This document shows, in pieces, positions 1 to 14,191 of a DNA stretch of 14,191 nucleotides; the first letter of the stretch is position 1, and every line of letters starts with the position of its first letter. The stretch comes from a virus (Duplodnaviria > Heunggongvirae > Uroviricota > Caudoviricetes). The stretch lies in the IMG/VR virus record IMGVR_UViG_2529292908_000005. One strand, given 5' to 3'. Both the position numbers and the translations under genes were made by a program. Below the pieces are notes generated by a model that saw only the letters and a program-made list of their open reading frames with translations, was not told the DNA's origin and searched no databases.

Positions 1-1578
1 ACCAGCATCATGCTCAAGGTACCAGGGGGCTCTTCCTGTTTCCTTGGTCAGTTTCATTGCCTTACCCCCGCTGGCTCCGGCATCATCCACGATTTGAGCC
101 TTGCCACCTCCGGCAGCCCAACCCTGTGGTGTCAACCGTCCTTCAGACTCAGATGCCCGGTAAGCAAATAGCGTACTCATCGTCGTGGTGTCTGCGGGTG
201 GCGTGGACGGTTTTGATGGTGTATCAGGTGACGGCTTCTCATCCGGTGGTGTCACGGTCTGCCCGCGCATCAGTTCAGCCGTGCGCCCTGCATGGAGCAT
301 AATAGCTGAGGCCAGACGGTCTGAAATGACGCCCCTGCGTGCCCATGAGCTGAAATGGCTGTCACGCTGTGTCGAAACAAAACTGCCCTGGGTTCGGGAT
401 GCTGCACCGTAATACCCGACAGCCACAATATCCGGGTCTTCCGCCGGAGCATTCGTTGGCGTGCTCTGTCCATTCTCATCCGTCAGGAACGGTACAAAGA
501 AAATTTTCTGTGCTTCCTTGCCTTTGTAGCCACCGTATACTGCCTCATATTTATCGGTGCCAGCGTTTTTCCAGTAATACGTGGTATCACCGCAAATCCA
601 CGGCACCGTGGTGGCATTTCCACTCACGCACTGCGCAGCAAGCGGAGCCAGGTCAGTTCTGAACTGCTGAACCATGGTCGTGAATAAACTATTATGCTGC
701 TGGCTTCCTGAGGCAAGGTCTGCCTCTCCCTGCATCCAGACCACAGCCAGAAGTTTGTTTTTCGGGTTTTTCGCCAGCGCGACTTTGGTGCGGCTTACCA
801 GGTCCTGATACAGAGGTTTACCGGCCCCCCAGCGTGAAGAATCAGCGGAAGCACCGCTGGCCTCACTGAATGAGCCGTCGGCTCCAGTGGTGAATGCTGA
901 CCCGCCACGACAACAGGGCACCAGAAGTATCCCGGCATTCTGTGGGATATAGGGAAGCAGTTTTTGGCAATATGCAACCCCTGACCGACAGTCCCGTACT
1001 GGCCTTTTGCCAGATCAGCTTTCGGGTGGTTTATCCCGCTCATATCCTGAACATCATGCAGGCAGTGGTCCGCCGGAATGATGTCGTTGTATGTACACGA
1101 CGTACCGTTGGGCGTTACCGTACTGCGGCGTGCCAGTTGCTTAATGCGTGGGTCCGGGCGGTCAAACGAATCCGGTAACGGCAGCCCCTCGCCGTAGGCC
1201 ATGCCATTTGACTGACCCGCGAGAATGACAACAAAGTAATATTCCGGCTCTGAACTGCTGCCATTCGTGCTACCGGAAGGCCCGGCGTTATCCGGTGCAT
1301 TCCAGTCGGAGGGCGTGAGCGTTCCGGCCACGTCAGATGTGATTGGAATGATGCCAGTCACGCCTGAACTGGTGATTTCTGCACTGGGATTACCGGATAC
1401 CGGCATTACCCATAATGGCTCTTTCGTGCTGAAGCGGATCACGCAGTCTGCGAAGGTGATCCCCCTTTATTACCCGAAGGGCGGAAGGGCTTTCAATAAA
1501 TGCCACCGTGCCACCGGCAACCTTGACTGAAAACTCTCCGGGCATGGCGGAGAGCATTTTCCACTTGGAGTCTGACAT
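1..1578 (-). pseudogene. nanS: NanS-p-like sialate 9-O-acetylesterase (SASA/SGNH domain) with extra N- and C-terminal regions; frame broken twice; 3' end runs off the window
   Basis: Minus-strand translation gives ...YYFVVILAGQSNGMAYGEGLP... (GQSN motif, ORF 795..1442) and, in the frame open from 960 to 1, ...LLPYIPQNAGILLVPCCRGGSAF...AVVWMQGEADL...GYYGA...; this matches NanS/YjhS-type esterases as recalled. N-terminal piece is ORF 1390..1578. Frame switches sit at C5 (1461-1465) and T5 (961-965). Pro/Thr-rich linker then a further domain towards position 1. Confidence 0.6.
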
Positions 1579-1663
1579 CGTCTTTTCTGCCTGTTTCTGA
1601 ATTAAACAGAGTCAGAATAGCGACCGCTGAAAAATATGTGTTTTGCGGAAATTCAAAAAAGCG

Positions 1664-2236
1664 TCACGGTACTTTTGGTGACGGAGCTGGTGAGGCAGGA
1701 AAATAACGATAAAGGGTGGAAAGGCCAATATCAAATATCAGTGCGATTTGTTTACGGGACTCGCCATTAGCCAGCAAACGGGCGATTTGCTCCCGCTCTT
1801 TCTCTGTCAGTTTCTGAGGTCTGCCGCCATGACGCCCCTGAGCACGGGCAGCAGCAAGACCCGCACGTGTACGTTCAATAATGAGTTCCCGCTCCATTTC
1901 CGCCAGCGCGCCCATTATATGGAAAAAGACACGTCCCATGGGAGTGGATGTATCAATATTGTCCGTAATGCTGCGGAAGTTAACGCCGCGTTGCCGGAGT
2001 TCTTCTGTTAAAAGGACAAGGTGCTGCATACTGCGTCCAAGGCGATCCAGTTTCCAGACCAGCAGGGTATCCCCTGGCCGGAGTCGCTTTAATGCGCGTT
2101 TAAGTCCGGGACGCTCCCTTGTCTTACCGCTTATTCTGTCTTCGAAAAACAGCTCACATCCTGCACATTCCAGCGCATTTCTTTGTAGCGCCGTATTCTG
2201 GTCATTTGTTGACACCCTGATATACCCAATCAGCAT
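1664..2236 (-). CDS. gin: Serine-recombinase DNA invertase (Gin/Pin/Hin/Cin family)
   Basis: 190-aa ORF starting MLIGYIRVSTNDQNT, with catalytic-domain pattern and C-terminal HTH ...LSTLYRYFPAS closely resembling Mu Gin as recalled; AAGGAA SD 5 nt upstream of ATG; start lies 66 bp from the left gix-like site. Confidence 0.95.
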   Translation of the reverse strand: MLIGYIRVSTNDQNTALQRNALECAGCELFFEDRISGKTRERPGLKRALKRLRPGDTLLVWKLDRLGRSMQHLVLLTEELRQRGVNFRSITDNIDTSTPMGRVFFHIMGALAEMERELIIERTRAGLAAARAQGRHGGRPQKLTEKEREQIARLLANGESRKQIALIFDIGLSTLYRYFPASPAPSPKVP

Positions 2237-2301
2237 ACGATTTCCTTATTATAAAAAGCCGGAATTGTCGCATGAGGAATAAAACAGAGTTAATCCTGGC
2301 T

Positions 2302-2327
2302 TTCCTGAAAACCTCGGTTTACGGGAA
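2302..2327. other. gix/hix-like 26-bp invertase crossover site (left)
   Basis: TTCCTGAAAACC|TCGGTTTACGGGAA: two inverted half-sites around a central dinucleotide; right half nearly identical to the Mu gix half-site TCGGTTTACAGGAA as recalled. Confidence 0.8.
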
Positions 2328-2687
2328 ACGGTAAACAGGGCGGCGAATGCTCTGCCATCGGACGGCACCGCCGTTGCCGCGAATAGACTCGCCACCCCAA
2401 GAAATATTAATGGGGTTCCCTTTGACGGGACGCAGGACATAAACATCACTTCTGGTATAACACAGCAGGATGCGGATTCCCGATATATCCAGGATATCAG
2501 GCTGGGAGCAGAGAACAGGCAGGTAATGTACGGTGGGGCATATTACTCTGCGTACGGTAATGTTATGGCAGGCCTGCAGATTGACAGTAAAGTTGATGCT
2601 TCAAAACGATTTTATAGCATTCAGACCCCTGCAAAAATTAGTCGGAGGTACATGGATTACGGTATCTCAGTTATAAATAGTCAGTAA
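2313..2687 (+). CDS. Silent alternative tail-fibre C-terminal cassette (Sv'-like); no start codon of its own
   Basis: Frame open from the left crossover site to TAA 2685-2687, encoding [48 protein letters not shown]...YMDYGISVINSQ. The first ~25 residues repeat the peptide encoded across the right site in the expressed fibre gene, so inversion would fuse this cassette to the constant fibre region. Confidence 0.7.
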   Translation, partial: LGLRETVNRAANALPSDGTAVAANRLATPRNINGVPFDGTQDINITSGITQQDADSRYIQDIRLGAENRQVMYGGAYYSAYGNVMAGLQIDSKVDASKRFYSIQTPAKISRRYMDYGISVINSQ

Positions 2688-2765
2688 ATAATATATTTTA
2701 AAACAGATTTATTTCCAGGAGGATTTTATGGAACTAAAAATATAACCCGTTATTATCCTGAAAAT

Positions 2766-3248
2766 ATGCCATATGGTAATAATGTTCAGTATTTCCAGAG
2801 TGAAGATGGTAAGGATTTCTACGAATCCCTGTCATTATTCACCAAAAAATATAAACTTTGCATAACACCTGACAGCGGCGTTATCTGCTCAATATCACAG
2901 GACGCCTCGGCGCTGTATCCTGCGGGGTTTTCTGTGGTTGAGGTCGATGAACTCCCTGAAGGCACGGATATTTCAGGAAACTGGAAGTTTGATAATGGCA
3001 TAATCTCCCGTATTCCGGTTAACTACGCAAGAAAACTGGAAGCAATGCGCCAGTCATATCTTAATCAGGCATATGAAAAAATTAATGACTGGAGAACGGA
3101 GCTACAACTGGGCACCATCAGCGATGAAGACAGAGCAGCACTTACCCAATGGATGGCATACATCAGTCAGGTGAAGAAAATGGAACTACCCGCCATTAAA
3201 ACAGAAGCTGAATTTAACGCCATTAAATGGCCTGAGCAGCCACAGTAA
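2766..3248 (+). CDS. tfa: Tail-fibre assembly protein (Tfa / Mu U-like chaperone)
   Basis: 160-aa ORF ...YFQSEDGKDFYE...ALYPAGFSVVEVDELPEG...GNWKFDNGIISR...KWPEQPQ, the characteristic Tfa pattern. ATG 2766 has no SD; a stronger start (AGGAGG + ATG 2728) lies upstream in another frame (see findings). Confidence 0.85.
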   Translation: MPYGNNVQYFQSEDGKDFYESLSLFTKKYKLCITPDSGVICSISQDASALYPAGFSVVEVDELPEGTDISGNWKFDNGIISRIPVNYARKLEAMRQSYLNQAYEKINDWRTELQLGTISDEDRAALTQWMAYISQVKKMELPAIKTEAEFNAIKWPEQPQ

Positions 3249-3251
3249 TAA

Positions 3252-3271
3252 AGAAGGCCGGAAGGCCTTCT
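3252..3271. terminator. Hairpin between convergent tfa and fibre genes (probable bidirectional terminator)
   Basis: AGAAGGCC-GGAA-GGCCTTCT: perfect 8-bp GC-rich stem with 4-nt loop, 3 nt after the tfa stop; T-rich run (TTATTACTG) on the minus-strand side. Confidence 0.5.
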
Positions 3272-3385
3272 GAATATCATTATATACTTGCAGCCGTCAC
3301 CCATGCTCCATTTAACAGATACTGCAACGGCCGGTAATACACGCCGCCGACGTTATCTGCCGTATTCTTACCGACATCCTGTACT

Positions 3386-4162
3386 TTAATTCCGGTAAGA
3401 ACATTGCCGCCCCCCCAGATTCAGATCCCAGCTTTCCCATGTTCCGGGCATATGTGCGGTCACCGACCCCAGTCTTATGGCGGTTACTGTTCCTGATGAG
3501 ATAGTGATATCCTGCGTCCCGTCAAAGGGAACACCATTAATTGTGTGGGCATTTGCCAGCCTGTTCGCGGCAACGGCGGTGCCGTCCGATGGCAGGGCAT
3601 TCGCCGCCCTGTTTACCGTTTCCCGTAAACCGACGTTATCGATAAAAGCCCCTTTATCCGGAATGTCTGCGCCGTTCTGCTCCCTGCGCAGGTAACGGTT
3701 ATCACCTTCGCTTTTGCTGTAAACATCCAGATTATTACGGGCGGTTCCCTTATTCTCCAGGTCGGCGAGATTCTGATCCTTCGCCAGGGCATTAACGTCA
3801 CCGGGACCAAGACTGTTTTTTGTGGCAAGCGTCCCCAGACCAAGATAACCACGGGCCAGACGCTGGGCCTCCGCACCGGCATCAGCAATTTCTTTCAGGT
3901 TATTTTTCCGGGAAAAGGCATTCGCAGCGATAATGGCTTTAATGGACAGCGTAAGCTGGTTTAACTGCGCCTTATCCGGCTGAATACTGGCTTCAGCCAG
4001 AATATTCAGCAGTTCGGCCTGGAGAATATTCAGCCAGTCCTGACCAATCCAGCTGATACCTTTTTGTCCGTCACCTTCGGTAAACCAGGTGGTGGTATTA
4101 CTCTGCGCCGGTGCCAGCGCAGGCATATTCGCCACGCCGGAATTATTATCAACATGAAACAT
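3386..4162 (-). CDS. Tail fibre protein (Mu S / P2 H-like): constant N-terminal part plus variable C-terminus inside the invertible segment; C-terminus probably truncated by a frameshift
   Basis: 258-aa ORF with ...[48 protein letters not shown]... crossing the right gix-like site; ATG overlaps the upstream gene stop (TAATG). A C7 tract at 3410-3416 is followed by a stop 8 codons later, while the -1 frame stays open to 3280. Confidence 0.85.
3620..3645. other. gix/hix-like 26-bp invertase crossover site (right, inverted)
   Basis: Reverse complement reads TTATCGATAACG|TCGGTTTACGGGAA; same TCGGTTTACGGGAA half-site as the left site and TTATC...AAC outer half as in Mu gix as recalled; lies inside the fibre coding sequence (encodes FIDNVGLRE). 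Confidence 0.8.
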
Positions 4163-4722
4163 TAAATAGTCTCCTCTTCATGGCTGTTTGCATACACGTA
4201 AATAAACGTCTGCCATGCAGGCTTATAACGGTTCAGAATACATTCCAGCGCACCGCCTTCATAAATACGCAGCGGCGTGAGAATATCATCCAGCACATTC
4301 ATATTCCGGTAGCCGGTTTCACTGTTAATCGTGACAATACTGACCCACTGCGAATCCGGTGAGGGCTGAATGTCAATCTGATAACCAAACTCCGCCGCAA
4401 ACCGGATATAAAATTCACGGTTCAGCGAGGGCTTCATCCGGTATTTATTTCCGGCATAACGCTGTCGCTCCGTGAGGGTGGCTCCGGCCATATCACACTC
4501 GGGAAGCCCGAGATAACGCTCCCAGTCTTCCAGCAGCAGGCGCGACGTGTCAGGGAAACGCTCGGCAAGCAGCTGTTTACCCGTCCAGGATACACGCGCT
4601 GTCGAATGACTGAGGCCCAGACATAATGATGCCAGTACGGATGACGGACGCTTGTCCCATGCCAGCCCGTCAGGCAGTAACTGCAACAGGGCGCGCTGAT
4701 GCGGGGTCAGGGTTACAGCCAT
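4162..4722 (-). CDS. Phage tail protein, DUF2313 / Mu gp48 / YmfQ-like
   Basis: 186-aa ORF in the conserved slot between baseplate J and tail fibre; start overlaps the J stop region and its stop overlaps the fibre start; composition and position match the gp48/YmfQ family as recalled. Confidence 0.75.
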
Positions 4723-5795
4723 GTGATTTCTCCTACCGTCAGCAGCTCACTGTCTCCCGCCTGAACTGACGTCAGCGGACTGCGCACTTCAAAATCCTCC
4801 AGATTTTTCACCCCTGCCACCGCCCGCCAGAAAGACGACGGCAGAACCAGACCGCCGGGCCGGGATTCGTTATACAACAGGTCGGTCAGCGCCTGTTTTA
4901 CGGCCGCCTGATTCTCCGGTGTTTTCGGGATGATCCTGATGCTGAAGGGCACCGGCTTATTGGTCAGTTTAAACACGGTCACCGTCGGCCCCAGAGGCTG
5001 TCCGACAGGCTGGCCGGTCGCCGGATCATCATGACTGCGGATATAATCCGCCACCCGCTGAACATCACCGTCACCGGGGAAAATATCCGGGTTATTATCC
5101 TGAACAAACGTTACCCCCACGCTGCCCGCCTGCGGCCATTCCGGGCGGCACCATGCCCGCGTCACGCCCGGCACTTCACGCGCCCAGCGTTCAAAATCAT
5201 ACTGCGTGCCGCCGGACGGTGGATTCTGCACCCGGAAAACCAGACGGGAAAGCAGCTCCGGCACGGTTTCCACATCCGCACCACCGGTGATCCCCGTTCC
5301 GGTCACCGTGGACGTCTGGTTGATCCCCGCCTGCGGTGTGATAAATGTCAGTTTTGTCCCTGCCGGGGCATTCCCCGCACGACCGGCACTTTCGGCTTCC
5401 ACACTGACATTCAGCGTACCGGCCTTACCGGTCAGGGAGGTGGTGATACGGTAAACCACGCCATCACTTCGCTGGAGAAGCACACCTTCCTTGATCCCCG
5501 CATCCGTGGTCAGCATCAGCTGAACCGGCCCGTCCCCCCGAGAGGCAGGCTTACGCATGACGCCCCAGAATGCACAGTGTTTCAGCAGTTCGGCTTCATC
5601 GGCTTCGGTCGGGATGATCTGACGCGCAATCCAGGCCAGATGCTCATGCTCCTGAGCAGATAACCCTGCCTGAGCGTAAGCAATGGCATTCAGGGTGGTT
5701 TCATTCACACCCGGCTGCGAGCCGGGCAGGCGCTGGCTGATATCCTGCTGTGTCTGCGTGATTAACTGTGCCAGCGGTAAAGGCTGATAAGGCAT
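4713..5795 (-). CDS. Baseplate J-like protein (Mu gp47 / P2 gpJ family)
   Basis: ORF-track frame 4713..5837 starts at TTG; a better start is ATG 5793-5795 (MPYQPLPLAQ...) with a GGG-containing SD. Translation shows the J-family layout (...ADEAELLKH.AFWGV.RK.A..A.G...GGADVE...) recalled from P2 J. Confidence 0.85.
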   Translation of the reverse strand: MPYQPLPLAQLITQTQQDISQRLPGSQPGVNETTLNAIAYAQAGLSAQEHEHLAWIARQIIPTEADEAELLKHCAFWGVMRKPASRGDGPVQLMLTTDAGIKEGVLLQRSDGVVYRITTSLTGKAGTLNVSVEAESAGRAGNAPAGTKLTFITPQAGINQTSTVTGTGITGGADVETVPELLSRLVFRVQNPPSGGTQYDFERWAREVPGVTRAWCRPEWPQAGSVGVTFVQDNNPDIFPGDGDVQRVADYIRSHDDPATGQPVGQPLGPTVTVFKLTNKPVPFSIRIIPKTPENQAAVKQALTDLLYNESRPGGLVLPSSFWRAVAGVKNLEDFEVRSPLTSVQAGDSELLTVGEITWL

Positions 5796-5954
5796 TAACC
5801 CTGTTCGATAAGGGGCTGATTTCCCGTGAGGAGGCAATACATATTATCAATCTCGCTCAAAAAAACTCTACCCCGGAAAATGCAGAAGATATCCAGGATG
5901 GCTCATATATTAATACCGACTGGCATTTCGACAATCTCCGGGCCTGTATGGGGA

Positions 5955-6242
5955 TTACCGCTGAAAAAGATTAAAAATTTTTGCATAATGTTCAGATGTA
6001 AGAATTGCTGAACCATCAACACCGAGCCTGCGGCGAACGTATTCCTCGCGGGCTATTTTATTATCCAGAGATACAGCATCCTTAATCAGGTTAATCTCCC
6101 GCTCCATTATCAAAAGGGCTTCTCTGGCTGCAAGATTTTCTTTTATCGCATATTCGATAATGTCCCGCATACGTTCAAGCATGCCGATTTTAGCCAGTTC
6201 TTCGTCGATAGATTTAGGCGCAAATTTGATTTCTTTTTCCAT
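5955..6242 (-). CDS. Hypothetical protein, predicted all-helical, encoded in AT-rich DNA
   Basis: ORF-track 5955..6257 (GTG start); preferred start ATG 6240-6242 (MEKEIKF...) with GAGGA SD 8 nt upstream, 1 nt after the stop of the upstream zinc-ribbon ORF; markedly lower GC than neighbours. Confidence 0.5.
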   Translation of the reverse strand: MEKEIKFAPKSIDEELAKIGMLERMRDIIEYAIKENLAAREALLIMEREINLIKDAVSLDNKIAREEYVRRRLGVDGSAILTSEHYAKIFNLFQR

Positions 6243-6243
6243 A

Positions 6244-6387
6244 TTATTCATCCTCACAATTTATACATGCAGTGTCGTCGCCCATATCGCAGTGGTTACA
6301 TTTTATCTCACCACAATGTGGGCACTCTTTCAGATACTCCGGGTCCTCATTTCCACAGGTGGGACATTCAACAATTTGCTCATCCAT
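6244..6387 (-). CDS. Small 4xCxxC zinc-ribbon protein (47 aa), not in the ORF track
   Basis: ATG 6385-6387 to TAA 6244-6246 translates MDEQIVECPTCGNEDPEYLKECPHCGEIKCNHCDMGDDTACINCEDE: four CxxC pairs in 47 residues; AGGGGA SD 7 nt upstream; start overlaps the stop of ORF 6380..6712 (ATGGATGA). Confidence 0.5.
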   Translation of the reverse strand: MDEQIVECPTCGNEDPEYLKECPHCGEIKCNHCDMGDDTACINCEDE

Positions 6388-6712
6388 TATGTATCCCCTG
6401 TAATTCCGGCAAGGCCGAAAGATGGCACCAGTGCGTCACCTGTCCGTCCTCATCTTCAAGGCAGGCTCCGGTTTCTTCATCAATAAAAAAGCCTTCATAC
6501 CCCATATGGCCGATGCGCAGTTCCTGTTGGTCACCATACTGAACAATCAGCACGACAGCCTCCATATCAGGCGGAAATGCGTCATCCAGTGAATGCCAGG
6601 GATAACCGCGCAAATCCCCGAAATAAACGCCGGTCAGCGTTCCGCCACAGAGCGGCATTCCGGCGGCACACACAAGAGGTTCATCTGATTCAACAAATAA
6701 GGTCGTTATCAT
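6380..6712 (-). CDS. Hypothetical protein (110 aa)
   Basis: ORF with ATGA start/stop overlap to the upstream gene at 6709-6712; acidic C-terminal half; no family recognised. Confidence 0.55.
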   Translation of the reverse strand: MITTLFVESDEPLVCAAGMPLCGGTLTGVYFGDLRGYPWHSLDDAFPPDMEAVVLIVQYGDQQELRIGHMGYEGFFIDEETGACLEDEDGQVTHWCHLSALPELQGIHNG

Positions 6713-7260
6713 GGCGTTAACTCCCGTAATACAGCGTCCTCGGCAGTCCGGCGACGGTAATAAACTGCGTGAGCAGAATGTTCAGATATTCCAAACTTTT
6801 CGCCAATTTCCCGGAATGACAGACGGCGTGGGTAATCGGAATCACGCAGCGCACGTATAAGACGTACATCATCATCAGATATGCGCGTGCCGGGGCGTAA
6901 CTCTCCGCACTTTGTTAATCCAGCACCAATCATTCCTGCCCGACATCTGACAGAATCTTTATTACGTCCGAGATATTCTCCCATTTGCTGGCAGGTCATT
7001 GTTCTGGCATTTTTTCGAATAAACTTATCTTCATCAGGTGTAAATCTTGGGTGTTTATATTTCAGTAACTCCGGGTATGAACTGCGCAATACACCAGTCC
7101 GGTTATATACAGCCCAGACAGTTCTTTTTATTCTGGCAGCAATATCCTTAACCGGGGTGGATGAATAAAGCGCAATCAGTAGCGCATCTTCTTCAGGTGT
7201 CCACGCGCGGACATGAGCGGGTGTACGACCTTTTCGCCCCATGGGTTGTAATTTCATCAT
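6709..7260 (-). CDS. Putative DNA-binding protein with tandem Myb/SANT-like HTH repeats
   Basis: 183 aa; repeats ...RAWTPEEDALLIALYS...IAARIKRTVWAVYNRTGVL and ...RFTPDEDKFIRKNARTMTCQQMGEYLGRNKDSVRCRA, plus a third weaker HTH-like segment; strong AGGGGGTGA SD; start 3 nt after the upstream stop. Confidence 0.6.
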   Translation of the reverse strand: MMKLQPMGRKGRTPAHVRAWTPEEDALLIALYSSTPVKDIAARIKRTVWAVYNRTGVLRSSYPELLKYKHPRFTPDEDKFIRKNARTMTCQQMGEYLGRNKDSVRCRAGMIGAGLTKCGELRPGTRISDDDVRLIRALRDSDYPRRLSFREIGEKFGISEHSAHAVYYRRRTAEDAVLRELTP

Positions 7261-7263
7261 GCA

Positions 7264-7779
7264 TCACCCCCTGACTCGCTTTTCAGCAGCATAAAACTCA
7301 TCAGACAGTATTTCGGTCATTTTCTGTTTTGCGGGTTTTACGCCGCACTGAAGGTAAATCACATCGTCAACGCAGAACCACTTCACAGGGCCAAACAGGA
7401 TTGCCGAGAAATCAATACCCAGCCAGAACAACAGCGCATCGGTTCTGGCATACGTGACGGGTGAATATTCACGCCACAGACTGTTCAGTTCATCAGAGGC
7501 AACACGCAGGGTTTTAGGGATACGTGATGTGCGCGGTGTGCAGCTCCAGCCATTCGACGCAGTCGGTTTTCGCCATAAGTCGCGATGAAAAGGATATTTG
7601 TCCTCCGTAAAACGCAGTCCCTTAAAGCAAAATCCACTGATACCGGATACAAATACCGACCGGCACGCAACATTCAGCACGGCCTCAAGGCGTTTTGCCT
7701 CATCCTTAACTTTCTGGCAGTCCTGCTGGTATTTTTGCCACGCAGCCAGCGCGGAAGGGTTTGATGTTTTAAAGAACAT
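7264..7779 (-). CDS. Hypothetical early-region protein (171 aa)
   Basis: ORF whose ATG shares a nucleotide with the upstream stop (TAATG at 7777-7781); no family recognised. Confidence 0.55.
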   Translation of the reverse strand: MFFKTSNPSALAAWQKYQQDCQKVKDEAKRLEAVLNVACRSVFVSGISGFCFKGLRFTEDKYPFHRDLWRKPTASNGWSCTPRTSRIPKTLRVASDELNSLWREYSPVTYARTDALLFWLGIDFSAILFGPVKWFCVDDVIYLQCGVKPAKQKMTEILSDEFYAAEKRVRG

Positions 7780-8312
7780 TACGCCACCTCCGCAGATATC
7801 CCGGCAGGCGCTGCTGTCCGGTCAACAATCAGGTAGCGCAGAACATGTTCAGTGATATTCCAGCCGCTTAAACCGCAGATAATGACGCCCAGGCGTATGT
7901 CGATATACGCCATCACAAACTGGGGCACGCCTTCTTTCATGGCCTGCTCATCAACTTCAGCCACCACATAAACGGTTTCACAGGTCAGAACGCCCTGAGC
8001 AAATTCCCACGCCATCGACGGAATATCATGCCCCTCAATCCATGGCAGGGATTTTCTGAAGCCGCACCACTGAACATCATCAGCCGCAGATTCCTGGCTG
8101 CATTTGCGACGAACCGGCTGCACCGGGCGGGGGCGCGGAATATCATAAAAACCGTTACATTCCGTCAGCACGCCTGCATCAACCGCATCACGCAGAAAAT
8201 AAACCATGGAGGATGGCGGCATATTCATTTTTTCAGCCAGTACACCGCAGGTCAGGCGGCCATAAATACGCAGCCAGTTTTTAACCCCTTCAAGCACTTT
8301 TGCATCAATCAT
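7779..8312 (-). CDS. Hypothetical early-region protein (177 aa)
   Basis: ORF with GGGGAAA SD 7 nt upstream of ATG 8310-8312; first gene after the 145-bp AT-rich gap downstream of gam; no family recognised. Confidence 0.55.
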   Translation of the reverse strand: MIDAKVLEGVKNWLRIYGRLTCGVLAEKMNMPPSSMVYFLRDAVDAGVLTECNGFYDIPRPRPVQPVRRKCSQESAADDVQWCGFRKSLPWIEGHDIPSMAWEFAQGVLTCETVYVVAEVDEQAMKEGVPQFVMAYIDIRLGVIICGLSGWNITEHVLRYLIVDRTAAPAGISAEVA

Positions 8313-8457
8313 GATTTATTTCCCCACCACATTATTAATGACGATATAAACGTATTTCATATTTCTTAACCCTTATTTTCTGTTTTCAGGCGCAAGCAGT
8401 CCCCTGACGCGAGCGCCATAATTAAAATGAAGTGATATTTAATTGATTAATGCGGTG

Positions 8458-8988
8458 TTATTTATTCAGTCCGGCGTCCTGTTCAAAAGGCTCGACATAA
8501 AAACTTTCAGCGCCTTTATTCACCTTGATACCGGCAATGCCTTTCACAGCATCCGGCTCCGCCAGGACGGCTTCCTTGTTCACTTCCTCTTTCGTGCGGA
8601 TGAAACGCTCAAGCCCCATACGGCGCAGCATTTCAATCACACCTTCCACATCACGGCTGACGCTGCATGATGGCGTTCCCAGCCGCCATGACACCGTTCC
8701 GGTGGTCAGATTGGCTGTTTTGGTTTTGCCGCCGTTCGTCAGCTCATCACGGTTGGTTTTGCACCAGTCCTGAATCCCTTTAAAAAGCACTTTGATTTGC
8801 TTTTTAAGATTTTCAATCTGCGGCGTATAACGGGCGGTGATTTCTGCCACTTCGTCATTCATCGCCGTTTCCAGGCGCAGCGCCTCTCGCTGAATATCTC
8901 CCAGGGTGCGGATATCACGGCTGACTTCTTCCCGGGTCTGCGGTGCCGCCTCGGCTGCGGCCTTTAATTTTGTAACGCGTTTAGCCAT
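8458..8988 (-). CDS. gam: Gam-like host-nuclease inhibitor (Mu Gam family, DNA-end binding)
   Basis: 176-aa ORF MAK...DIRTLGDIQREALRLETAMNDEVAEI...DWCKTNRDELTNGGKTKTANLTTGTVSWR...ERFIRTKEEVNKEAVL...EPFEQDAG, co-linear with Mu Gam as recalled; AGGA SD. Confidence 0.9.
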   Translation of the reverse strand: MAKRVTKLKAAAEAAPQTREEVSRDIRTLGDIQREALRLETAMNDEVAEITARYTPQIENLKKQIKVLFKGIQDWCKTNRDELTNGGKTKTANLTTGTVSWRLGTPSCSVSRDVEGVIEMLRRMGLERFIRTKEEVNKEAVLAEPDAVKGIAGIKVNKGAESFYVEPFEQDAGLNK

Positions 8989-8999
8989 TTTGTTTTTCC

Positions 9000-9293
9000 T
9001 TATTGCAGTGTGCCTGATGCTTTATGCACGCGGTGGCGTTTAATGATGGCATCCGCTCCAAAAGACTGTGCAGATGCCTGAAATTCCGCTGAGAGAAACT
9101 GAATAATTGCAGGACTGTGATACTGGAGAATACTTGCATAAACGTCACAGAGTGACGTCGGCCTGTTATCCGTATCACGTTCTGTTTTTACATCCACACC
9201 AATCTTTTCATGCACTTCAACACTGTCATTGCCTGCCGGTTTTTCGTCATGCGAAACATGCTCAAATTCAAAAATAACGCGTACTTTGCTCAT
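9000..9293 (-). CDS. Hypothetical small early protein (paralogue 1 of a tandem pair)
   Basis: ORF-track 9000..9320; preferred start ATG 9291-9293 (MSKVRVIFEFEHV...) with GGGG SD, 4 nt after the upstream gene stop; N-terminus parallels the upstream gene (MSKVVRIIFEYKE...). Confidence 0.55.
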   Translation of the reverse strand: MSKVRVIFEFEHVSHDEKPAGNDSVEVHEKIGVDVKTERDTDNRPTSLCDVYASILQYHSPAIIQFLSAEFQASAQSFGADAIIKRHRVHKASGTLQ

Positions 9294-9297
9294 GGAA

Positions 9298-9570
9298 TTA
9301 CCCCTGCTGATTAAATTCATTACCGTTAATAACCCCGGAAGCCATGCCTCTGTCTTTCATGAATGCACTGGCTTTCATTGCCACAAACTCTGCGAAGTTT
9401 CTGCTTTCTGCCAGCATAACCACCCCAAAAATCATGGCGGGTCCATTATCTTTCTTCTTTATTCCGGTTGAACGTATATCCAGACTTACCCCTCTGTGCG
9501 TGCTGCCATCAGAGTTTTTGCAGATAACATCTTCCTTGTATTCGAAAATAATGCGTACGACTTTACTCAT
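9298..9570 (-). CDS. Hypothetical small early protein (paralogue 2 of a tandem pair)
   Basis: 90-aa ORF MSKVVRIIFEYKEDV...; 4-nt start/stop overlap with the upstream gene. Confidence 0.55.
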   Translation of the reverse strand: MSKVVRIIFEYKEDVICKNSDGSTHRGVSLDIRSTGIKKKDNGPAMIFGVVMLAESRNFAEFVAMKASAFMKDRGMASGVINGNEFNQQG

Positions 9571-9848
9571 CCTCTGGTCCTCGTTCTGTTTGGATAACTG
9601 ACCCGGCGTCTAACCTCACGGCAGAACCGAATCATGGCATTAAAGGCTTCTTCCTCCGTCACCGCTTCCGGTATCCCAGGAACCAGTAGCTGTTCCTGTT
9701 CATCGCGTCCATGACGCGCCATAACCTCAATCACATGCCGTACCGTGGCAGGCTTTCCGGCAACTATCGGCAATGCACCTTCCGGCAGGACGTAACCAAA
9801 CTCAATAAGACCACTCGACCACGCCCATGCAATGAGATTTCGTTTCAC
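9567..9848 (-). CDS. Hypothetical small early protein (93 aa)
   Basis: ORF packed between neighbours in the B-to-gam interval; no family recognised. Confidence 0.5.
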   Translation of the reverse strand: MKRNLIAWAWSSGLIEFGYVLPEGALPIVAGKPATVRHVIEVMARHGRDEQEQLLVPGIPEAVTEEEAFNAMIRFCREVRRRVSYPNRTRTRG

Positions 9849-9849
9849 C

Positions 9850-10116
9850 TCACACCTCCCAGTAAACCGTGCAGCCGCTGATGCGGGTGGCCTTCACACG
9901 GCGGCGCAGGCCGTTGGTCTGTATGGTGATTTCAATTTCACCGGTTCCCTGCACGTTGCCTACCGGCGGCGTGGTTTTCAGTGCAAAACGTTGCGGATAG
10001 CGCTTACTGCGTTCCAGTACCGCACCGGCAAGTTCGGTCAGACGGCGCGCGCTGTTCAGGGAGTCGAATAAATTCATTTTGTTACCGCAGGATTGCATAT
10101 TCATATAACACCTCAT
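9850..10116 (-). CDS. Hypothetical small early protein (start ambiguous: ATG at 10116, 10104, 10098 or 10077)
   Basis: ORF directly following the upstream stop (TAA ATG); several in-frame ATGs, GAGGTG SD-like element before 10104/10098; sits where kil-type genes lie in Mu, but no sequence recognition. Confidence 0.45.
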   Translation of the reverse strand: MRCYMNMQSCGNKMNLFDSLNSARRLTELAGAVLERSKRYPQRFALKTTPPVGNVQGTGEIEITIQTNGLRRRVKATRISGCTVYWEV

Positions 10117-10338
10117 TTAGCTGACTTGTTTCGCACCAACAGAACGGCATATTCCGCTGTAAACTTCTGTCGCACCTTCGCGATCAAGTCCGGCAGATAT
10201 CACCATTCGTGTGCGGTCATTAAATTCAAAAAGTAAATCGCCACATTCTTTATTTTCGGCCAGTGAAATCACCTTCACGTTATCGAAATTAACCAGGTAA
10301 AAGCGTCCGTAAATATCAGGAATATTAAATACCGCCAT
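10117..10338 (-). CDS. Hypothetical small early protein (73 aa)
   Basis: ORF-track 10117..10344 (GTG); ATG 10336-10338 with AGGTG SD 5 nt upstream is preferred; begins 2 nt after the B stop. Confidence 0.5.
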   Translation of the reverse strand: MAVFNIPDIYGRFYLVNFDNVKVISLAENKECGDLLFEFNDRTRMVISAGLDREGATEVYSGICRSVGAKQVS

Positions 10339-10340
10339 AA

Positions 10341-11273
10341 TCACACCTGTGAGAGTAATTCAGGGTTGGTATAAACCTCTTTAAAGGCCGCATTAATATG
10401 TTTTTCTGTCAGCGCCGCGCCTTCACCGCTGGCGGTGAGCCACGCCTGGTTAAGCGTATGTGTCAGAACGCGTAACGCTCCCGGCTTTTCAGCGATAGCC
10501 TGCATGACGGCCAGCTCGGCCTCACCACTGATACCCCATGCCCTGGCAATGGCCAGCACATCCGCCTTTTTGGCCTTGCGAAGTTGTTTTGTACGGGCAA
10601 GACGGCTGAACAGGCGCGATAAATCATCAAAGGCGCGGCGTCCACCTTTAAACAATCCGCGCGGGTTACCAATAAGCACCATCCCGATCCCCGTGGCGTC
10701 CTGAATTGCCCGGAGTTGCTCCAGACCGTCAATACCAAGATGATCCGCCTCATCCACAATCACCAGTCCACGCGTTCCCGTCAGGCGACGGCGGATGGCG
10801 CGGGATAATGCCCCTTTGTTCGCGCGGGTGTAATCAATCCCCAGCGCATCGGCCAGCTCCAGCAGACACTCCGTGACGCTGGAGTGCGCGGGTGACAGGG
10901 TGATCATCCAGGTGTTTGGTTGCTCCTGGCAGTAATTACGGGCAGTGGCCGTTTTACCCACACCCGGTACGCCCACAATAACGTTAATACAGCCCATCAG
11001 GCGAACCGCCTGAAACAGTGCGCGCAGCTCCTGGACTGTCTGAGTTTCCACAAACTGCGGCGGTTCCGGCAGTGCGCTTTGTTTATTCCAGTTCTCATAC
11101 CAGGAGCGCAGGGAAGCAGCCACAGCGGCGTTATCGCCTTTATATTTCCCCTTGCGGAAAGCCGATAATGTGCCGTCGGAAATTCCCGCCTCTCTGGCGA
11201 TGGCATACTGCGTCAGCACGCCGCCATCAATAAGTTCATCAATGGTCTTGATTACATCGTTTATATCGGTCAT
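10341..11273 (-). CDS. B: MuB-like transposition target-capture protein (AAA+ ATPase)
   Basis: 310-aa ORF with Walker A VGVPGVGKTATARNY, ...LVIVDEADHLG..., N-terminal HTH-like region, and co-linearity with Mu B as recalled (...GDN..V...L..W...PEPP.FVETQTV...KPGALR.L...); GAGG SD; directly downstream of the transposase. Confidence 0.92.
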   Translation of the reverse strand: MTDINDVIKTIDELIDGGVLTQYAIAREAGISDGTLSAFRKGKYKGDNAAVAASLRSWYENWNKQSALPEPPQFVETQTVQELRALFQAVRLMGCINVIVGVPGVGKTATARNYCQEQPNTWMITLSPAHSSVTECLLELADALGIDYTRANKGALSRAIRRRLTGTRGLVIVDEADHLGIDGLEQLRAIQDATGIGMVLIGNPRGLFKGGRRAFDDLSRLFSRLARTKQLRKAKKADVLAIARAWGISGEAELAVMQAIAEKPGALRVLTHTLNQAWLTASGEGAALTEKHINAAFKEVYTNPELLSQV

Positions 11274-11312
11274 ATTATTACCTCGCGTTTGTGTAGTTCC
11301 TTTGTTTAATCA

Positions 11313-11348
11313 AATAACCTGAGTCGCCGCTCGGGTTATTTTTTATTT
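11313..11348 (+). terminator. Stem-loop plus T-tract in the A-B intergenic region; reads as an intrinsic terminator on the strand antisense to A/B
   Basis: AATAACCTGAG-TCGCCG-CTCGGGTTATT (11-bp stem with one G-U pair on the plus-strand RNA) followed by TTTTATTT; on the sense (minus) strand the stem has a C-A mismatch and a weaker U-tract. Confidence 0.35.
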
Positions 11349-13438
11349 CAGGCCAGAGGGTCATTTTCTTTTAATTTCGCTTCAAGCAGCTGCAATCCCC
11401 GCTGGAAATTACGCTCGTATTCTTCATCAGGTTCATCGTCAGCGACCGGTTGCTGAACGATCACCGTATTACCCACAGGGCGGTATATATTTTCCAGCCA
11501 CGGCTCCTGTGGCTTGTGCTCCAGCACGTTGACAATCTCATCCTCGGCATCACGGATTTTTTCCTCTGCGCGTTTACGCATGCCTTTAAGGCGCTGCTGC
11601 TGTTTGTGGTATTCCGCGCTGACCGGGAAGGCTTCGCGTTTATTGCCGTCCCATACCGCCTCGCAAATCACGCTGCCATCCGGGCGACGTACGGTAATTC
11701 GTTCGGCATCATGAATGTCATAGCTGATAAGCACCTTACGACCATGCTCGTCACGCAGCTCGGGCGCGTAGTAAATATTATTCAGCCAGCGTATTTCACA
11801 GCGTCTTACAGGGCGTTCCACCATCGGCCGGAACATATCCCGCAGCTCAACATCGGACAGCCATTCAATTTCCGTGTCCTCTTCCGCCAGGCGTTTTTTT
11901 CTGAACTCCGCCGGGCTGTAATGCTTGCCGTTCGGCTTCACCGGTAATTCATCGTGCGGCCGGTTGTTGTACCACTCAACACCATCACGAATGGCATCAA
12001 TCAGTTCAGCCCAGGACGGTAAATCACGCATCGCTGACTGCTGCCGGGCGTTCAGCCGTTTGCCCTGTTGCAGGGCAGTAAATGCCGAGCGTAAATCGCG
12101 GTTGGTTTTGCGTAACGTCTCGCGATCTGCACCTTTCCCGAAATAGGTGCGGTATTTACGGGCTATGCGCATCGGTAATGTGCGGTTAAGCCGTTCGATA
12201 ATGCCTCGTCCCTGCGGATTACCGGCAATCCCGGTCGGGTGATTAATCCCCAGTCGCGGCAGTATCCCCACAACCTCCTTATCCAGGATGTCGGCGGTTT
12301 CCCCGGAGCCGTTATCCGAGTAATACAGAAACGGTTTGCCGTGATGGCGAATGCCGTGCTGTATGGCACCGGCTACGGCGAAAACATTTTCAGCCAGGTC
12401 AAGGCTCCAGCCCACCACAAAGCGCGTGCCACCGTCGATAACAAAGGTCACTTCCGGTGCAAATGGCCGACCGTGAACCGGGTGTGCGCATTTCAGCTTC
12501 ATGCCGTGACCGTCACCAATCCAGACATAATTCACCGGCATTTTTGACCAGTCGCGGCGCGTGAATCCCTCAAGCTGGCGGTATTCACTGCCGGTCACCC
12601 GGCCTTTTTGTTTCACCACTTCCGGCAGTTTCTTCATTGCGCGGCGAATGGTGTCATAAGACGGCATGATATCGAGCATATAAGGCTCATCAGCGTGCCG
12701 GTGCTGCCATTCAGCAACAAAATCCTCGTAAGCCTCGGTCATTGGTCGGCCGTTTGACTGGCGATACTGCGCCAGAAATTCGGGCAGCCAGTTAATATCT
12801 TCGGCTTTTATTTCCTGGCGCTTACCCGGTGCCAGTAAAAGCAGGCGTTCAGCGGCGTTCTGCGCCTTGTTAAAGGCCGCAATCCAGCGTTTCAGCGTGA
12901 TTTCACTTAACGCGCGGCTGTTTCCCTTTTTGGCGTTCGCCGTCTCAACCATTGCCACAATGCGCTCGTCCAGCTGCGAACGTGCCAGGTTGTCAACGAT
13001 AAACCGGATAGCCTTCGCACAGCTGAAACCAGGTTGTTGCGCGACTTTCAGCACCTCGCTGACGATCGCGATTCGTGCATCAGCCACCTGGCGCTGGTTT
13101 TCAGTCAGGGCATTAAGGCGTTCAACCATCAGTTGTGGTGATCCGCGATATGCCTCCACCGCATCAACCACGGCAGGCGAGCGTCTGGCCTTTGTCACCA
13201 CTGGAGCCGGTGATTCATCGACTTTTTGAGTCATCAGTTGCAGGGCGTAGCGTTCACGTAATGCCTGCTGCGTCACTTCAGGTAAACAGTCGATGCTGTA
13301 TTCAGTTGCTTTAGAGCCTGAGCGACGACGGGAACAACAGCTTTTCCCTTGTACGTAACGTTGTAATGCCTGGCGAATACCTTTTGTTGTAGCAGGCATT
13401 CCGGGCGCGCCAATCAGTTCTTTTGCAATGACATACAT
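11348..13438 (-). CDS. A: Mu-type DDE transposase (MuA-like)
   Basis: 696-aa ORF of MuA size, immediately between ner-like and B-like genes; start 1 nt after the ner stop (TGATATG); internal ...YVWIGDGHGMKLKC... core region. Assignment rests mainly on size and conserved ner-A-B synteny. Confidence 0.9.
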   Translation of the reverse strand: MYVIAKELIGAPGMPATTKGIRQALQRYVQGKSCCSRRRSGSKATEYSIDCLPEVTQQALRERYALQLMTQKVDESPAPVVTKARRSPAVVDAVEAYRGSPQLMVERLNALTENQRQVADARIAIVSEVLKVAQQPGFSCAKAIRFIVDNLARSQLDERIVAMVETANAKKGNSRALSEITLKRWIAAFNKAQNAAERLLLLAPGKRQEIKAEDINWLPEFLAQYRQSNGRPMTEAYEDFVAEWQHRHADEPYMLDIMPSYDTIRRAMKKLPEVVKQKGRVTGSEYRQLEGFTRRDWSKMPVNYVWIGDGHGMKLKCAHPVHGRPFAPEVTFVIDGGTRFVVGWSLDLAENVFAVAGAIQHGIRHHGKPFLYYSDNGSGETADILDKEVVGILPRLGINHPTGIAGNPQGRGIIERLNRTLPMRIARKYRTYFGKGADRETLRKTNRDLRSAFTALQQGKRLNARQQSAMRDLPSWAELIDAIRDGVEWYNNRPHDELPVKPNGKHYSPAEFRKKRLAEEDTEIEWLSDVELRDMFRPMVERPVRRCEIRWLNNIYYAPELRDEHGRKVLISYDIHDAERITVRRPDGSVICEAVWDGNKREAFPVSAEYHKQQQRLKGMRKRAEEKIRDAEDEIVNVLEHKPQEPWLENIYRPVGNTVIVQQPVADDEPDEEYERNFQRGLQLLEAKLKENDPLA

Positions 13439-13439
13439 A

Positions 13440-13688
13440 TCATGACGCCTTTCTCATATAGCTCTTAACCTGGTATCGACTGGGCCAGATTTCTTCAGGC
13501 GATACCCCAAGAGCATCAGCAATTATTTGCTGATACGGTCGGCAAGGAGTACGTAATACGCTTTTCAGCGAATCCCTGCTGTAACCAGCCTTTAAAGATA
13601 AAGAGCGCAGTGATAAGCCAGCCATGTGTAAGCGCGCCTTGATGATTTCAGGCGGCCAATCGTGATCTGAAACTTCTCTTCTACTCAT
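13440..13688 (-). CDS. ner: Ner-like DNA-binding regulator (Ner/Nlp family)
   Basis: 82-aa ORF ...DWPPEIIKARL...GLSLRSLSLKAGYSRDSL...QQIIADALGVSPEEIWPSRY..., co-linear with Mu Ner / E. coli Nlp as recalled; first gene of the early operon, divergent from the repressor. Confidence 0.88.
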   Translation of the reverse strand: MSRREVSDHDWPPEIIKARLHMAGLSLRSLSLKAGYSRDSLKSVLRTPCRPYQQIIADALGVSPEEIWPSRYQVKSYMRKAS

Positions 13689-13855
13689 ACTTCCTCTATT
13701 CTAAAAAGTTACCCGCGCGGATATTCGTGCGGATATCTGTACGGGTAAATAATAGAACAAGCAAAAGAACCAAATCAAGGTATTTTGTTCTTTTTATTCT
13801 TTGCGGTGTTTTTGTTATTAATATCAATAAGATAAATAAAAAGGAACCTGAGAGC
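13689..13855. promoter_or_regulatory. Divergent early promoter/operator region between ner and the repressor gene
   Basis: 167-bp AT-rich intergenic region. Direct repeats GCGGATAT at 13717-13724 and 13729-13736 nested in inverted arms TTACCCG (13709-13715) / CGGGTAA (13742-13748). Candidate leftward promoter: -35 TTGATT (13773-13778) and -10 TATTAT (13749-13754), 18-bp spacer. AAGGAA SD for the repressor at 13841-13846. Confidence 0.5.
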
Positions 13856-14191
13856 ATGAACATGAAAAACAGTTCTTTTCTCGACGAAGGAAAAGAACCA
13901 GTGATCGAACGGATTTTTCGTCTTGCAGAGCGTTACAAATCGAGAAGTGAGGCGGCTAGAGCATGGGGAATAAACGTTCAGACATTGCAGAACTACTACA
14001 AAAGGAGAAACAATCAGCCGCCACCACAACCAAGAAAGCACCATCTCCAGAACATTGCAGAAAGAGAACATGTATCTATGGAGTGGCTGGTCAATGGTTA
14101 TGGTGATGAGCCAAGCATGAAAAAAGAACCAATTGAACAAACAAAAAGAACAAAAAACAAAGAATTGATGATAGTGATTCCATCATCATGA
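13856..14191 (+). CDS. Prophage repressor, CI-type HTH (Phage_CI_repr-like); ends at the window edge
   Basis: ORF-track frame 13727..14191; preferred start ATG 13856 (MNMKNSS...) with AAGGAA SD 9 nt upstream; HTH segment ...SRSEAARAWGINVQTLQNYYK... and the ...VSMEWLVNGYG motif typical of CI-type repressor N-domains; divergent from ner-A-B. Confidence 0.7.
   Translation: MNMKNSSFLDEGKEPVIERIFRLAERYKSRSEAARAWGINVQTLQNYYKRRNNQPPPQPRKHHLQNIAEREHVSMEWLVNGYGDEPSMKKEPIEQTKRTKNKELMIVIPSS

Follow-up and report, generated by a model that had tools for sequence, protein, structure and literature searches.

The stretch of DNA analysed here (the window; 14,191 nucleotides) corresponds to positions 1-14191 of AIFX01000029.1, a contig of the draft assembly of E. 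coli DEC6C. It carries the tail end and the early region of a Mu-like E. coli prophage which is inserted in kefC. A divergent prophage repressor-like gene (phrog_3037) lies on the plus strand at 13856-14191; it is frameshifted at an A6 run (14152-14157) and cut at about residue 100 of 194. On the minus strand the order is a ner-like HTH gene, the Mu-type transposase A (11348-13438), MuB (10341-11273), kil, gam along with other early genes, the baseplate protein J/gp47 (4713-5795), a Mu Gp48-like (YmfQ) baseplate protein (4162-4722), the tail fibre, a serine DNA invertase and a DUF6645/SASA-esterase gene (1-1578). Both baseplate genes are intact. The DUF6645/SASA gene is cut by the contig end and has three private one-base deletions, and it is continuous in all relatives, sister assemblies included. 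In its intact form (L003, 454-2508) it encodes 684 aa, with a domain of the SASA (sialate O-acetylesterase-like) type and DUF6645 at the C-terminus; an esterase which modifies surface glycans or is associated with the tail is conceivable.

At 5796-5797 the early region runs straight into the start codon of gene J, and about 20 kb is absent at this junction, including gemA/mor (late activator) and the lysis, head and tail genes. The junction was not found in any complete genome of the collection examined. An ORF of 68 aa which spans it was found in four other E. coli draft assemblies; these are independent of each other, and a misassembly was therefore rejected. Because the junction ORF recurs in these four assemblies, the loss of about 20 kb is taken as real and inherited. 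A different internal junction, in which window position 4311 is joined to 10069, was seen in the IMG/VR contig L014. The prophage copy cannot make virions, and by analogy with Mu it probably lacks the late-gene activators and promoter. The locus is thus a naturally occurring 'mini-Mu'-like internal-deletion derivative of a Mu-like prophage inserted in kefC. Since the late genes of the missing 20 kb are lost, the fibre is not expressible as a part of a virion. The preliminary description had called the variable end of this fibre expressed; the end is in frame with the constant part, but with gemA/mor and the lysis, head and tail genes absent it is not plausibly expressed.

The fibre gene reaches into an invertible segment. 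The right gix-like site of 26 bp (3620-3645, minus strand; TTATCGATAACGTCGGTTTACGGGAA) lies within the fibre codons FIDNVGLRE and marks the boundary between the constant and the invertible part. We take this site to resemble the gix site of Mu, and the inversion seen in relatives breaks exactly at it. The left gix-like site, also of 26 bp, is at 2302-2327 on the plus strand (TTCCTGAAAACCTCGGTTTACGGGAA). The right arm of an inverted repeat (3492-3640) pairs with the left arm (2307-2455) and encodes the stretch common to both fibre ends. The repeats bound a segment of about 1.3 kb which holds the fibre end with the C tract (Sv), an alternative end on the other strand (Sv') and one Caudo_TAP gene (U'). 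The silent end Sv' (2302-2676, plus strand) has an extra A at 2603-2606, which frameshifts it and destroys its FRPLQKLVGGTWITVSQL terminus. The tail-fibre assembly (chaperone) gene U' (2728-3248, plus strand) encodes 173 aa in relatives; in the window an A is missing at 2736-2740, the frame shifts after codon 4, and an ORF of 160 aa is left from an ATG at 2766. The segment 2302-3645 is asymmetric in its gene content: U', the sole tail-fibre-assembly gene, is co-oriented with Sv', and in the Sv orientation the fibre ends at a shared hairpin without a downstream chaperone gene, though the RPLQxLxxGxW motif is present in both ends.

The invertase gene next to this segment (1664-2236, minus strand) is intact and encodes a catalytic Resolvase domain (PF00239, 3e-51) along with a C-terminal HTH (HTH_7, PF02796, 5e-15). 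The crossover sites lie inside the fibre gene and both orientations occur in nature, as in the Gin/Cin/Pin type of switch. The flipped state was found in FORC_043 and several other contigs; in FORC_043 the constant part continues into Sv', giving a fibre of 296 aa, and U' follows. The inversion-switch context given to the fibre in the preliminary description is hence real, being seen in both orientations in public genomes and metagenome contigs. The invertase itself has a valine in place of phenylalanine at codon 103 (nt 1930), in the conserved GRFFFH stretch; 10 of 10 relatives have F, and V103 is shared by two sister contigs only (AASIYF02 and Logan SRR9913975).

The closest known system is the G segment of Mu with Gin, to which the P1 C segment with Cin and the e14 Pin can be added. 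Like these, the locus has a serine invertase beside an invertible segment of about 1.3 kb, inverted repeats with 26-bp gix-like sites, and a crossover in the fibre gene which joins a constant N-terminal part to either of two alternative ends; the backbone with transposase A, MuB, Gam, Gp48 and baseplate J is also that of Mu. The locus differs from Mu in that there is a single tail-fibre-assembly gene, placed with Sv', and not two, so the arrangement S-U / S'-U' in which each fibre end has its own chaperone was not found. Also unlike Mu, the fibre is short (293 or 296 aa), the DUF6645/SASA esterase gene stands in the place of mom, and the copy in the window is a deletion derivative.

The fibre ORF as it stands in the window (3386-4162, minus strand) encodes 258 aa, stops at 3386-3388 and is identical to EHV67299.1 of E. 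coli DEC6C. Its frame is changed at a homopolymer at 3410-3416, which is C7 on the plus strand and G7 on the coding strand and one base longer than the C6 of 40 other public copies. The coding strand reads CTG GGG GGG CGG CAA TGT TCT TAC CGG AAT TAA, and the final seven residues, RQCSYRN, are out of frame. The run and the truncation, both reported in the preliminary description, are present in the window sequence. When one C is removed the ORF becomes a 293-aa protein which ends in GGVYYRPLQYLLNGAWVTAASI and stops at 3280-3282, as had been proposed; the extension had been counted as 44 codons, and the remainder (3280-3409, minus strand, now out of frame) has 42 codons and the stop, a trivial miscount.

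This remainder is the C-terminus of the intact 293-aa fibre and is conserved in homologues down to 67% identity. The predicted extension equals the translation of the intact gene in a relative of 99.8% identity, and in 23 complete E. coli genomes the region is one base shorter, is annotated as a CDS of 882 nt and encodes the identical 293-aa protein. In the whole gene-position index the 293-aa protein is found on 202 contigs and the truncated protein on 1. A Pfam search of the fibre gave no domain; the end-to-end homology came from PHROGs, where the 293-aa form matches phrog_1833 (tail fibre) over the full length of the profile (E = 4e-141); several other fibre families have C-terminal ends with which the last residues of the 293-aa form align. 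The terminal motif F/YRPLQxLxxGxWxT is kept in homologues at 91% and 67% protein identity and in the alternative end Sv'. Because the exact protein is on 202 contigs, matches phrog_1833 in full and keeps its terminal motif in homologues, the 293-aa form is the native one, and the short form has no homologue. The suggestion that the long end is the native C-terminus thus holds when homologous fibres are compared, the protein being the same as that of the intact relatives. The hairpin (3252-3271) said to abut it was also recovered directly after the native stop; it is GC-rich with 8 pairs and a T-rich tail, resembles a terminator and separates the fibre end from the chaperone gene, which converge on it.

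The length of the tract was surveyed in 43 public copies. It was C6 in 40, C5 in 2, and C7 in the window's own contig only, and the C6 copies comprise 23 of 24 complete E. coli genomes, 11 of 12 IMG/VR contigs and all 6 metagenome contigs. A further scan of genome contigs for the tract gave no hit. C5 was read in FORC_043 (L004, 3023-3037), whose tract is in the silent orientation, and in an IMG/VR contig (L012, at about 4478 in the reverse-complement coordinate), where it is fused to the fibre. The latter contig has other clear private indels at 2102 and 3530, with four private homopolymer indels in all besides C5; in FORC_043 one further indel (2307) looks private, and the rest are shared alignment effects at repeat boundaries. 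In diverged homologues the run is broken (CTAGGGGAGGGC, CTGGGGGGTGGC), with A or T interruptions at 84-92% identity, and the protein position is variable, reading LGGG, LGEG, APSG or SAYG, so the Gly-Gly is not conserved. A diverged fibre homologue of E. coli SCU-171 (L019, 2012-2613) is annotated as CDS fragments of 171 nt and 150 nt; its disruption lies elsewhere than the tract. Within the window, one C7/G7 run was observed against 2.44 expected from shuffles, which is no excess over chance; what goes beyond chance is the frameshift relative to the homologues, the run being shorter in 42 of 42 other public copies.

These data bear on the most attractive reading of the tract, in which it is a contingency locus, a poly-G/C slippage switch, layered on the Gin-type inversion, by which one of the two ends of the fibre is silenced. 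C5, C6 and C7 all exist in public data, and the fibre gene in whose host-range-determining end the tract is found is already under programmed variation. The contingency loci of Neisseria, Haemophilus and Campylobacter likewise have a G/C run in the coding sequence of a surface-recognition protein, where a change of length shifts the frame. Unlike those loci, in which a long tract (typically 8 nt or more) is maintained across homologues and ON and OFF lengths are frequent among isolates and within populations, the run here has an in-frame length of just 6 nt, is in frame and nearly monomorphic (40 of 43 copies), is interrupted in diverged homologues where the encoded residues vary, and stands alongside unrelated homopolymer indels. 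All three off-length copies come from assemblies with other private indels. The chaperone gene of the window is frameshifted along with both fibre ends, it and Sv' at unrelated A runs, and the window has no C7/G7 excess. We therefore regard a contingency locus as very improbable. Its narrower form, in which the G6 Gly-Gly run, where the receptor-binding tip begins, would be a low-frequency slippage hot spot and the G5 and G7 copies (FORC_043, one IMG/VR contig and DEC6C) would be heritable OFF states of one fibre orientation, is equally doubtful. The preliminary description had offered a sequencing miscall, a decay mutation and such an on/off switch as explanations; the true one is to be sought among the three, and it is the switch that finds no support, the C6 being short, fixed in 40 of 43 copies and interrupted in homologues, and the C7 being one of eight private homopolymer indels.

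It could also be supposed that the C7 allele is a functional one, decoded to the full-length fibre through programmed ribosomal frameshifting or through transcriptional slippage on the G7. The sequence G GGG GGG has the form of a slippery heptamer, and RNA polymerase can slip on homopolymers. Such heptamers promote a shift of -1, whereas the native frame needs +1 (or -2); the allele is confined to one assembly; and every relative encodes the protein in a single frame with C6. A programmed shift would be required in all homologues, and the relatives make the 293 aa in one frame. Programmed frameshifting was rejected on the need for a +1 shift and on the in-frame relatives. Runs of seven G or C are moreover generally poor slippage templates. 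Taken as a whole, a recoded fibre has a negligible chance of being the explanation.

The tract was then considered together with the other changes private to this assembly. Window positions 1-5797 were aligned to 9-13 relatives of at least 98% identity, and the private changes comprise six indels, all of one base and all in homopolymers, against five substitutions. Three of them fall in the DUF6645 gene, at 961-965 (T5, T6 in relatives), 1461-1465 (C5, C6 in relatives) and 1485-1486 (A2, A3 in relatives), the last two being just 24 nt apart. The others are at 2603-2606 in the silent end Sv' (A4, A3 in 10 of 10 relatives), at 2736-2740 in the chaperone gene U' (A5, A6 in relatives) and at 3410-3416 in the fibre end Sv (C7, C6 in relatives). 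Over 5801 alignment columns, 10 substitutions separate the window from its nearest relative, strain 600029, and the indels between the two are precisely these six. Two further private indels were found in the early region: one at 11339-11344 between transposase A and MuB (T6, T7 in five relatives, including L005, L006, L023 and L024, and in the sisters L027 and L028), and one at 14152-14157 in the repressor-like gene, where the A6 of the window is A7 in every relative and also in the sister that shares its kefC site. Of the eight indels, seven disrupt ORFs which are intact everywhere else. As judged from these alignments, the C7 is private to the DEC6C assembly and belongs to a set of eight one-base homopolymer differences.

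The share of indels is high. In mismatch-repair-defective E. coli, 5,324 small indels were counted to 30,061 substitutions (PMC8510543). At that indel fraction six indels to five substitutions have P = 0.0027, and at an assumed fraction of 9% the value is about 2e-4. Other old draft contigs of the region have their own scattered private homopolymer indels (nine in L015, four in L008, and four in L012 along with its C5).

Sister assemblies give a closer comparison. JNRB01 shares both the deletion junction and the kefC insertion with DEC6C, to which it is identical over 5391-9840 and 11683-15972 save two sites, where it has T7 at 11339 and A7 at 14152, the latter with an intact 194-aa repressor. 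The two sister contigs which have the rare invertase F103V, AASIYF02 and Logan SRR9913975, read T6, C6 and A3 at the three DUF6645 sites and have a continuous DUF6645 ORF. All five indels covered by the sisters (961, 1461, 1485, 11339 and 14152) are thus absent from them, in sequence otherwise identical over about 8.7 kb; this coverage extends to five of the eight sites, as the sister contigs break off at the inverted repeat or within gene J, before the C tract. Between 9841 and 11106, a patch over MuB has 20 substitutions between DEC6C and the otherwise identical sister JNRB01, to be explained either by recombination over this tract or by two prophage copies having been mixed in one assembly.

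Two explanations of the eight differences have to be weighed on this evidence, and the first is that they are errors of the assembly. All eight, C7 against C6 included, are changes of one base within a mononucleotide run. They are private to one assembly, with the truncated protein on 1 contig and the five covered indels absent in the sisters, and they come as a group with an excess of indels over substitutions (6:5, P = 0.0027). The homopolymer errors of pyrosequencing-era and long-read drafts have the same character: they are of one base, in both directions, several per region and private to one assembly, they break ORFs that are intact in relatives, and indels exceed substitutions. The 2012 drafts of the DEC collection were probably 454 assemblies. 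The same centre in the same year (2012) used 454 Titanium with Celera for its own other genomes (PMC3491183).

The window is unlike typical draft errors of this kind in two respects. Over the 9.5 kb of core chromosome that adjoins the prophage on this contig, identity to K-12 is 100.0% with zero indels, a T8 run included. In addition, two of the eight differences are found in runs of just 2-4 nt (A3 to A2, A3 to A4), where consensus errors are unusual. A uniform error rate across the contig was rejected as stated on account of this core. That all eight indels fall in the prophage and none in the core has P = 0.019 when counted per base. Runs of at least 6 nt number 4 in the 9.5-kb core and 19 in the prophage, six of these discordant, and the Fisher test per run gives P = 0.54; the contrast between core and prophage is not significant once normalised by long runs, and the sequencing error may be a localised one.

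The second explanation is genuine decay, in which the C7 is a real +1 mutation by replication slippage, fixed in DEC6C, and one of several in tail-end genes that are of no further use. Frameshift pseudogenes of cryptic prophages resemble the window in having a large internal deletion with the remaining late genes frameshifted. The deletion here is real and inherited, as seen from its junction recurring in four other assemblies and from JNRB01 having the prophage at the same kefC site, and therefore selection on the fibre, chaperone and DUF6645 genes would be relaxed, the late activator, head and tail genes being already lost. Slippage mutations favour homopolymers, the run length does vary in the database (C5 in two other copies), two indels are in short runs, and the neighbouring core is free of errors over 9.5 kb on the same contig. 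The spectrum is, however, implausibly rich in indels for cryptic-prophage pseudogenes, the 6:5 ratio being far above any measured E. coli spectrum, and the sister copies are intact at the five checkable sites. Because these near-identical sisters carry the same defective prophage without the five covered indels, decay would require all of the changes to have arisen very recently. That one gene takes three of the hits, with two of these 24 nt apart, also weighs against decay. The repressor weighs on the same side: from the biology of Mu, a truncated repressor beside intact ner, A, B and kil, if real, should be harmful to the host and counter-selected. Genuine decay is on balance a tentative alternative, and we consider it unlikely.

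We infer that the eight differences are base-calling or consensus errors rather than mutations. For the tract itself, the comparison points to the C7 being a one-base over-count of a native C6, a consensus miscall in one draft assembly, to which we assign a probability of roughly 0.68. The real gene would then most likely read CTG GGG GGC GGC AAT and encode an ordinary fibre of 293 aa, in which the constant part is joined at the gix-like site to one of two invertible ends by the Gin-type switch of a Mu-like prophage. The tract would have no mechanism of its own and would encode Gly-Gly only. Most likely this is no biological feature; should it be one, ordinary pseudogene decay in a crippled prophage accounts for it.

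The positive result of this work is a corrected gene model, a 293-aa fibre with the conserved RPLQxLxxGxW C-terminus. A further useful outcome is the identification of the locus as a natural internal-deletion derivative of a Mu-like prophage in kefC. If the slippage hot spot, doubtful as it is, were true, it would add a second stochastic layer of host range over the Gin inversion in Mu-like prophages. As a caution, a homopolymer frameshift in a host-range gene mimics phase variation, and it is the comparison with sister assemblies that reveals it as one of a batch of run-length differences private to a single assembly.
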